A DNA stretch of 42,537 bases from Staphylococcus phage vB_Sau_IS1, in the sequence record PV069681.1, one strand, 5' to 3'. This document shows, one piece after another, positions 23,664 to 24,028 of this stretch (within the stretch, counting starts at the first letter, position 1; every line of letters starts with the position of its first letter). The notes below the pieces were generated by a model. That model made no database searches and was not told the DNA's origin. It was given only the letters and a program-made list of their open reading frames with translations. The position numbers and the translations under genes are program-made.

Positions 23664-23820
23664 TTTTATCCCTCTTCCATAAATTGATAAGCAGTAAAGT
23701 AGTAAGCAGTGCAACAACACTTTTACTTATATCGTTGCCTAAAAACACGTTTATCCAAATAAGAATGATTAAAATAATGTAAATTGTTTTCATAGTATTT
23801 TAGTGTTAGAATTTATATAT

Positions 23821-23843
23821 AGACAGCCCTTTCGGGCTTGTCT
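23821..23843 (-). terminator. hairpin terminator immediately after the 30-aa peptide gene
   Basis: AGACAGCCC-tttc-GGGCTTGTCT, a GC-rich stem in AT-rich surroundings. Confidence 0.5.
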
Positions 23844-23845
23844 AC

Positions 23846-23938
23846 TTACTTATCGTCTTTTTTCAATGTTTTCGCTATGGCAATTGCTGACATTGTATAA
23901 AAGGCGATTTCTGCTATAGTTTTAAAATTTTCTAACAC
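23846..23938 (-). CDS. 30-aa hydrophobic peptide with a charged C-terminus (MLENFKTIAEIAFYTMSAIAIAKTLKKDDK)
   Basis: GTG start 7 nt after a perfect GAGGAGG. Upstream are the promoter TTGCAT-17-TATAAT and a 5' leader; downstream is a hairpin terminator. Confidence 0.5.
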   Translation of the reverse strand: MLENFKTIAEIAFYTMSAIAIAKTLKKDDK

Positions 23939-23968
23939 TTTTTATCCTCCTCTCAACTGGTATACCTT

Positions 23969-23997
23969 ATTATAACACGGTTAAACGTGATATGCAA
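23969..23997 (-). promoter_or_regulatory. near-consensus sigma-A promoter (TTGCAT, 17 nt, TATAAT) driving the small peptide
   Basis: Read on the - strand: -35 at 23997-23992 and -10 at 23974-23969. Confidence 0.5.
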
Positions 23998-24028
23998 TAC
24001 TTTTTATAAACTTTTTTCGTTTTTTTGC

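Follow-up and report, generated by a model that had tools for sequence, protein, structure and literature searches.

ORF1 of Staphylococcus phage vB_Sau_IS1 as a predicted RNA-controlled leader of an Aca/AcrIIA13-15-type operon

Staphylococcus phage vB_Sau_IS1 carried, between its lysis genes and its integrase gene, a 30-aa open reading frame (ORF1) faced by a convergent promoter on the opposite strand, and the locus raised the question whether this was a self-contained type I toxin-antitoxin-like unit, as an initial annotation had read it, or one part of a larger genetic device. It was analysed within a 42,537-nt stretch of sequence record PV069681.1 (herein the window), representing a temperate Staphylococcus siphovirus with phage 96, ECel-2020a, SAP8_Andrews, and phiMR11 as its closest relatives. 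All sequence elements named in the initial annotation were present and could be read directly from the sequence, but the unit was not self-contained: ORF1 was the first cistron of an operon, a long-range RNA helix tied it to a gene lacking a Shine-Dalgarno (SD) sequence, and a gene for a helix-turn-helix (HTH) protein lay downstream. The cassette displayed the order promoter with inverted repeat, ORF1, GC hairpin, SD-less membrane protein gene ORF2, 68-aa HTH gene, and 66-aa ORF4. The element is best described, as judged from comparative evidence, as an RNA-controlled leader of an Aca/AcrIIA13-15-type operon that combines known kinds of system; a rough probability of 0.6 is given to the reading that ORF1 and a predicted convergent antisense RNA of about 100 nt together form such a leader in an autoregulated acr/aca-type prophage accessory operon.

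The ORF1 gene and the long-range helix

The module (Table 1) was found in 30 phage records of S. aureus and S. pseudintermedius, covering the genera Phietavirus, Dubowvirus, Triavirus, and Fibralongavirus, with identity as low as 69% in a sensitive DNA search. The promoter, SD, start codon, 30-31-codon frame, stop codon, and hairpin were all kept in the alignment of relatives, each element being conserved in position across phages with 69-80% DNA identity in this region. Viral contigs scanned by pattern and species-representative genomes scanned with protein anchors supplied extra variants, bringing the total to 18 distinct ORF1 peptides, all of 30-31 aa and with GTG or ATG starts; pairwise dN/dS was 0.21-1.07 (mostly 0.3-0.6). 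By this comparison ORF1 is a real coding gene, conserved as such in agreement with the initial annotation, and it was missing from the annotation of most phage records. The peptides were not homologous between cassette families (sister loci are identified below by L numbers). A separate observation was made in L091 and L093, where, about 210-330 nt upstream of the HTH gene, ORF1 was broken after 17 codons by an in-frame TAG and its hydrophobic C-terminal part resumed in the +1 frame; the break was common to both loci, and the interrupted ORF1 would be either a pseudogene or a recoding site.

The strongest structural signal lay in the sense RNA. An invariant motif following the hairpin, AATTCTAACAC, was the complement of the start region A-GTG-TTA-GAA, and when the sense RNA was folded from its predicted 5' end to a point shortly beyond the motif, this 3' element paired with the start region in the minimum free energy (MFE) structure of 13/13 variants; the window RNA folded far better than its shuffled versions (z = -5.3). 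For 14 sequences of the main family, to which the window belonged, RNAalifold gave the long-range helix as the only consensus structure (97.6% paired), and three of the nine pairs were changed on both sides: (i) GUG/CAC to AUG/CAU, (ii) UUA/UAA to CUA/UAG, and (iii) A-U to C-G. The covariation score of the helix was reached by 0/500 shuffles, while slid registers paired at 28-41%. Formal pair counts were made only for this helix because MAFFT put the hairpins of two length classes out of register.

The most telling evidence came from families of unrelated sequence, in which the helix survived a complete turnover of the ORF1 sequence. Among 15 lineage representatives, 12 harbored an 8-16 bp duplex over the start codon, ending 5-11 nt before an SD-less AUG, and overall the helix measured 8-17 bp and lay 4-11 nt upstream of the SD-less gene. 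It comprised 10 bp in L085 (start region CAGUGAGUAA and 3' element UUACUCACUG), 14 bp in L092, 14 bp in the acrIIA13 cassette L084 (start region GAAAUGAGGCGAAA and 3' element UUUCGCCUCAUUUC), 16 bp in L140, and 17 bp of perfect complementarity in L142. Shuffles over a 420-nt AT-rich target gave a null too weak to inform; under the position-specific nulls used instead, the duplexes of L085, L092, L084, and L140 were matched by 0/3000 shuffles each. Two layouts were distinguished by the gene that the helix adjoined: in type-A cassettes, including that of the window, the SD-less gene was ORF2, while in type-B cassettes ORF2 had its own SD within the loop and the SD-less gene was the HTH or acrIIA13 gene. 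On these comparisons, the predicted helix physically joins ORF1 initiation to the initiation region of whichever SD-less gene comes next. The initial annotation had suggested folding the 5' untranslated region (UTR) to look for SD sequestration; a conserved sense fold hiding the initiation region was found, with the start codon, not the SD, being masked. An invertible-DNA reading of the 10-nt inverted repeat formed by the two helix strands (23802-23811 and 23930-23939) was dropped, as the repeat covaried with start-codon identity and always stood beside an SD-less start, which points to RNA pairing.

The convergent antisense unit

The convergent antisense promoter of the initial annotation held up: in the window its TTGTTT and TAGAAT boxes were present, with the spacer corrected from 16 to 17 nt and the -35 start from 23785 to 23784, and an analogous promoter recurred at the same place in 8/10 cassette families, including those of unrelated sequence. 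In the type-B layout, the antisense -35 overlapped the start codon of the gene following the hairpin and the -10 ended 4-12 nt before the hairpin; the promoters read TTGTCA-17-TATAAT in L140 and L142, TTTTCA-17-TATAAT in L084, and TTTACA-18-TATAAT in L092, and an independent scanner also found those of L142 and L084. In most families the antisense promoter scored within the top 0.2-6% of background windows, and in 11/14 representatives it outscored the sense strand of the same DNA. A consensus scan listed neither the antisense nor the sense promoter of the window, because both -35 boxes matched TTGACA at only 3/6 positions; as far as the boxes themselves tell, the extended -10 elements are what carries both promoters despite this.

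The predicted antisense RNA was asymmetric in structure with respect to the sense strand. The long stem within ORF1 was more stable on the antisense strand in 13/13 variants, by 2.2-10.5 kcal/mol, while the strand difference in the other minus-strand genes of the window averaged +0.15 +/- 3.7 kcal/mol. The antisense alignment contained several G.U or U.G pairs that were mismatches on the sense strand, one U.G pair being invariant and corresponding to A.C on the sense strand. Of nine other families folded, eight had an antisense strand that formed a GC hairpin at its 5' end and a long stem with a U-run after it (for example UUUUAUUUUUAU, UUUUUUUGUUU, and UUUUUUUAUUCG), these U-runs resembling a canonical terminator that ended just short of the ORF1 start codon; L094 folded differently from these eight. 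The initial annotation had the transcript start at the hairpin and run across the whole ORF and its SD; the predicted start near the hairpin stood, while the RNA would probably span the hairpin and most of ORF1 and end within ORF1, before the SD. Rfam searches of the window and three sister loci at gathering and permissive thresholds gave noise-level matches only (a match inside the endolysin gene is described below) and none over the module, and no antitoxin match above noise was obtained at the module.

The operon and its acrIIA13 relatives

The sense promoter had been called near-consensus: its TTGCAT and TATAAT boxes, 17-nt spacer, and extended -10 were all present, its -35 departing from consensus as noted above. 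Within it lay the inverted repeat CACGTTTAACCGTG (CACG-N6-CGTG in the window; a perfect palindrome in QT1), at the position of IR2, which lies between the -35 and -10 in the acrIIA15 promoter (PMC10901769). From its position and conservation, CACGTTTAACCGTG is likely the operator of the cassette HTH protein. S. simulans loci having the HTH gene alone displayed a similar AACG-N8-CGTG.

The GC hairpin directly following ORF1, as described in the initial annotation, showed compensatory changes (GACA/TGTC versus GGTT/AACC). On the minus strand it had no U-run, the stem being followed by AUAUAUAAAUUCU, and it was not called by the terminator scan. The hairpin as terminator of a monocistronic peptide mRNA was rejected on account of the missing U-run and the selection on the downstream helix; read-through of the hairpin is implied, because the conserved long-range helix lies beyond it.

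The three-gene core of ORF1, ORF2, and HTH gene was conserved in at least 10 Staphylococcus and Mammaliicoccus species and four phage genera, ORF1 being always followed by a small, strongly hydrophobic, SD-less ORF2 of 43-51 aa and then a 65-71-aa HTH gene that often overlapped the end of ORF2. ORF2 had no family in Pfam, NCBIfam, PHROGs, or PADLOC, and the homologues returned by a protein homologue search formed three clusters, all named 'hypothetical protein'. The HTH family profile, compared with solved structures, matched the AcrIIA15 N-terminal domain (E 1.6e-8) and Aca11 (E 8.3e-8), and the single window sequence gave E 5e-5, aligned over its full length; by these matches, the window HTH is a homologue of both, so that the operon harbored an Aca-type regulator. 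It was a stand-alone 68-aa protein without the C-terminal Acr domain. ORF4 matched nothing among solved structures; its position corresponds to that of the anti-CRISPR domain in AcrIIA13 and AcrIIA15, which makes it a candidate for a cargo or anti-defence gene. ORF1, ORF2, and ORF4 gave no match to a known Acr in searches of family models and solved structures.

AcrIIA13-15 are Staphylococcus anti-CRISPRs that share an N-terminal HTH, which binds to inverted repeats within the promoters of their own genes (PMC7104187), and diverse anti-defence genes have been reported in Aca-regulated operons (PMC13551039). Sister cassettes recovered with a broader HTH alignment linked the window to such operons directly: the third gene was acrIIA13 in L084 and L086 (C-terminal domain, E 1.6e-53), and an AcrIIA13 homologue of 46% identity was encoded in the metagenomic L142. 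These three true acrIIA13 operons harbored ORF1, hairpin, ORF2, 3' element, and antisense promoter as in the window. The DNA upstream of the acrIIA13 cassette in L086 was 97-99% identical to that of the main-type cassettes of QT1 and L075 up to about 50 nt before ORF1, so one phage slot can hold either the acrIIA13 or the main-type cassette. A neighbour of acrIIA13, 'GF5 gene 1', is noted as uncharacterised (Watters et al. 2020, PMC7104187).

Several further cassettes were observed. In L079 and L081 (2501-2965), the third gene encoded a 154-aa AcrIIA15-type HTH fusion with a C-terminal domain matching nothing among solved structures, which may belong to the AcrIIA13-15 series as a member not yet characterised. 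Decayed cassettes were found at L004 (phage JS02, 701-1006), L076 (about 2150-2500), and L078 (about 450-560): (i) in JS02 both start codons were lost and the copy lay beyond the annotated attR; (ii) in S. marylandisciuri GC-rich STAR-like repeats replaced ORF1 while the 3' element and ORF2 were retained; and (iii) in Mammaliicoccus stepanovicii a truncated remnant adjoined a tRNA gene.

Table 1. Features of the ORF1 locus and its surroundings, with positions counted along the window
Feature	Position	Strand	Remarks
Sense promoter	23969-23997	-	-35 TTGCAT 23997-23992, 17-nt spacer, TATAAT 23974-23969, extended -10 TGtTATAAT 23977-23969; TTG, TG, and TATAAT in all cassette variants
Inverted repeat CACGTTTAACCGTG	23976-23989		Between -35 and -10; putative operator for cassette HTH; [CT]ACG-N6-CGTG in all main-family promoters
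Shine-Dalgarno GAGGAGG	23946-23952	-	7 nt ahead of GTG, as in the initial annotation; G[AG]GGAGG invariant across variants
ORF1, 30 aa	23846-23938	-	GTG start at 23938; translation MLENFKTIAEIAFYTMSAIAIAKTLKKDDK
Long-range helix, 5' strand	23930-23939	-	A-GUG-UUA-GAA, includes start codon; MFE fold, covariation
Long-range helix, 3' strand	23802-23811	-	UUCUAACACU; 8 nt upstream of ORF2 AUG; on + strand overlaps antisense -10 box
GC hairpin	23820-23844		Starts 2 nt after ORF1 stop; one bulged A; would be 5' stem-loop of antisense RNA
Antisense promoter	23784-23812	+	-35 TTGTTT 23784-23789, 17-nt spacer, TAGAAT 23807-23812, extended -10 TGtTAGAAT 23804-23812; spacing constant in main-family variants except L061
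Second stem-loop, within ORF1	23852-23908	+	AUCGUCUUUU...AAAAGGCGAU; -17.4 kcal/mol on + strand versus -10.3 on - strand
Predicted antisense RNA, about 100 nt	23819-23925	+	5' hairpin, linker, second stem-loop, U-rich tail UUCUGCUAUAGUUUU; 3' end by prediction
ORF2, 51 aa	23638-23793	-	Small membrane protein, two hydrophobic segments; no SD-like motif; Kyte-Doolittle 2.54
HTH gene, 68 aa	23457-23663	-	Aca/AcrIIA13-15 N-terminal-domain family; overlaps ORF2 end by 26 nt; own SD
ORF4, 66 aa	23242-23442	-	Last gene of operon; own SD; soluble; phrog_16907 (unknown function)
Bidirectional terminator	23208-23231	both	Closes operon ahead of integrase gene; terminator scan
Two lysin terminators	24168-24144 and 24061-24038	-	Terminator scan
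Integrase gene	21927-23003	+	Convergent with ORF1 operon

The minus strand displayed the order holin, endolysin, two terminators, ORF1 region, and bidirectional terminator, followed by the convergent integrase gene; by this order, the ORF1 region lies in the accessory slot that separates the lysis genes from the integrase gene, and its location beyond two lysin terminators was as the initial annotation had stated. Four observations concerned the surroundings: (i) S808 (Staphylococcus sRNA 808) at 24372-24626 on the minus strand was a full-length Rfam match (286.8 bits versus a gathering score of 76) lying wholly within the endolysin coding sequence; (ii) the minus-strand interval 24039-24167 between the two lysin terminators had a promoter-like TTTACA-18-TATTAT with TG, the second terminator about 50 nt later, and a weak sub-threshold SprD-like Rfam match (24.8 bits, E 0.0095), and it may be a candidate small-RNA gene of about 70 nt; (iii) a 309-aa ORF (20963-21892, plus strand) directly upstream of the integrase gene and on the same strand had a lipoprotein-type signal (MRRLLGLVLASTLVLGAC...); and (iv) an 864-aa ORF (26110-28704, minus strand) between the tail genes and the holin gene contained a short collagen-like Gly-X-Y run (GERGERGEKGEVGERGAEG).

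Mechanism, rival explanations, and significance

In the mechanism proposed, a strong sigma-A promoter, recognised from sequence and conservation, would drive ORF1, the GC hairpin, the SD-less ORF2, the HTH gene, and ORF4, and the HTH protein would repress it through the inverted repeat. Once the transcript had passed the hairpin, the 3' element would pair with the ORF1 start-codon region, as the covariation indicates, and close the whole ORF1 domain. The helix would thereby mask the ORF1 start codon in a manner like that of the hok fbi (fold-back inhibition) element, and would couple or gate ORF1 initiation with that of the SD-less gene, which is ORF2 here and acrIIA13 in type-B cassettes. The plus strand would also be transcribed, into an RNA that starts with the hairpin, ends at the second stem-loop within ORF1, base-pairs with most of ORF1, and lowers peptide and leader expression. 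The antisense RNA and the 3' element may compete, because both would be complementary to the ORF1 5' region if antisense transcription reads through.

A number of points weighed against this account. As to the helix, the L019/L023 clade had an uncompensated C.A mismatch, that of L091 needed a bulge, and none was seen in L094 among the lineage representatives examined; formation of the helix would require read-through of the stable hairpin 23820-23844, and the summed SD-to-helix and helix-to-AUG2 spacing (AUG2, start of the SD-less gene; hand-measured across cassettes) varied from 9 to 20 nt. As to the antisense unit, the promoter was weak or absent in L079, L085, and L091, the window tail UUCUGCUAUAGUUUU was less canonical than in other families, and no clean terminator was found in the window family. 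Conservation of the antisense promoter in the window family was moreover confounded, because its -10 mirrors the start-codon region and its -35 lies in ORF2 codons 2-3; the type-B families remove this confound, near-consensus antisense promoters being still present there at the same place. As to the peptide, the window ORF1 was only weakly hydrophobic and matched no toxin family in Pfam, NCBIfam, PHROG, or PADLOC (none at E <= 1). The whole case is built from comparative sequence analysis.

The first rival explanation was a bona fide type I toxin-antitoxin module, with ORF1 as a toxin that damages membranes, the antisense RNA as an unstable antitoxin, prophage maintenance or abortive infection as the function, and the downstream genes as unrelated passengers. 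The architecture of the initial annotation (peptide gene, convergent antisense unit) stood and was extended by the masked start codon, an mRNA fold blocking initiation being characteristic of type I systems, and systems with a 3'-overlapping antisense RNA (SprA1/SprA1AS, SprG1/SprF1, txpA/RatA, bsrG/SR4, and yonT-yoyJ/SR6) resembled the locus in having a 30-46 aa peptide, a strong SD, a convergent small RNA over ORF and 3' end (predicted at the locus), and a prophage location. The prophage accessory location was like that of sprG1/SprF1 and the SPbeta systems, and in yonT-yoyJ a second small hydrophobic ORF likewise directly follows the first (PMC5848175). ORF1 peptides of L084, L140, and L142 had clear C-terminal transmembrane helices, and the size of ORF1, these helices, and the RNA logic would all fit a type I system. 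However, the peptide, which the initial annotation described as hydrophobic and Fst/PepA1-like, was of 30 aa but only moderately hydrophobic: the best 17-aa Kyte-Doolittle window scored 1.28, compared with about 2.3 for PepA1 and Fst, and no similarity was found to Fst/Ldr, PepA1/SprA1, TxpA/BsrG/SprG, Hok, or other toxin models; plasmids searched by tblastn with a 31-aa ORF1 variant of the QT1 type gave no match either. In one large cassette family ORF1 was non-hydrophobic, amphipathic, and beta-like. Nor was the unit autonomous, because the helix tied ORF1 to the next gene start and the HTH gene was always present: the peptide gene headed a longer operon that a protein repressor would control, and this obligate linkage added to the caution raised by the weak hydrophobicity. 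A plain type I module is considered rather unlikely; as far as peptide sequence and gene context go, ORF1 may be a membrane-active toxin, and then part of a true type I system, or mainly a regulatory leader peptide.

In the hok/sok fbi and the H. pylori aapA1 5'-3' interaction, a downstream element pairs with the 5' initiation region and the full transcript hides the start site. The locus differed from these in that the start codon rather than the SD was masked and in that the 3' element was internal to a polycistronic mRNA and abutted the start of an SD-less gene, and it showed no sign of 3' processing. In the Min Jou interaction of the RNA phage MS2, as in T4 genes 38 and 25 with their split ribosome-binding sites, a long-distance helix links the initiation sites of two cistrons; here, similarly, the SD and the second AUG flanked the base of a closed RNA domain. 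A split ribosome-binding site as in T4 gene 38, by which closure of the helix would bring the ORF1 SD to AUG2, was ranked low, as the 9-20 nt path between SD and AUG2 is too variable for a fixed site.

The second rival was a purely cis-acting leader, in which translation of ORF1, not its product, would open or close the helix and so set translation of the SD-less aca or acr gene, while AT-rich sequence and the mirrored start region would account for the antisense promoter as a by-product. The helix was the most robust feature of the locus and outlasted the replacement of the ORF1 sequence between families, whose peptides shared no homology, and in the main family both antisense promoter boxes could be explained by the helix and the ORF2 codons. 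Within families, however, ORF1 amino acids were conserved, its length was kept, and dN/dS was below 1; type-B families, whose helix element has a different location, kept antisense promoters close to consensus with a spacer of exactly 17 nt; and stem stability was strand-asymmetric, with U-runs on the antisense strand. This explanation is judged unlikely. That ORF1 and/or ORF2 (or ORF4) would be anti-defence cargo of an acr-aca operon, small inhibitors of host defence whose dose the RNA features tune, is very doubtful: the canonical acr-aca layout (strong promoter, inverted repeat, small ORFs, and HTH), the acrIIA13 cassette in the same slot, and the variety of anti-defence genes in Aca-regulated operons speak for it, whereas ORF1 and ORF2 also lie upstream of acrIIA13 itself and so appear to be platform parts rather than interchangeable cargo, are tiny membrane-type peptides unlike known Acr proteins, and had no match in PADLOC, Pfam, or the solved-structure set, and CRISPR-Cas is uncommon in S. 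aureus.

The preferred reading, an RNA-controlled leader in an autoregulated acr/aca-type operon, was closest to the acrIIA13/14/15 operons (Watters et al. 2020, PMC7104187; PMC10901769) and Aca11 (PMC12658196), with which it shared a homologous HTH, an inverted repeat between the -35 and -10 of a strong promoter, and a prophage accessory region; it differed in that the window had no gene of demonstrated anti-CRISPR activity and its HTH had no C-terminal Acr domain. The AcrIIA13-15 and Aca literature searched, including that on Aca RNA control, dealt with inverted repeats, with HTH binding, and with the binding of Aca2 and Aca1 to hairpins in the 5' UTR (PMC7104187, PMC10901769, PMC12658196, and PMC13551039), and leader ORFs, antisense RNA, or a long-range helix were not mentioned there; the ORF1 peptide sequence appeared in 0 papers in a full-text search. 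Aca2/Aca1 control of acr mRNA through 5' UTR motifs (PMC13551039) likewise adds a post-transcriptional layer to an acr/aca-type leader, but there a protein binds 5' UTR hairpins, while here a translated leader ORF, a cis-antisense RNA, and an RNA-RNA helix are proposed. More tentatively, AcrIIA13-15-family operons, including the true acrIIA13 ones, could contain a three-part RNA device, composed of a translated leader peptide, a cis-antisense small RNA over its ORF, and a start-masking helix that gates an SD-less acr or aca gene, with the antisense RNA and the 3' element in competition; an anti-defence operon would then have taken over a type I toxin-antitoxin-like module as its expression switch.

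For annotation, the analysis means that a conserved 30-aa gene and a predicted small-RNA gene are missing from most staphylococcal phage records. Anti-CRISPR genes need fast expression at infection followed by damping, which has so far been credited to DNA binding by Aca proteins, plus 5' UTR RNA in the case of Aca2. If the reading holds, one anti-CRISPR operon family, which includes acrIIA13, whose product is in use as a SauCas9 inhibitor, would have an extra RNA layer absent from the literature searched, and the helix-controlled gene without a ribosome-binding site would be a concrete case of SD-less initiation in a Firmicute. It would also raise the question whether a type I toxin-antitoxin module can become domesticated as a regulatory leader.

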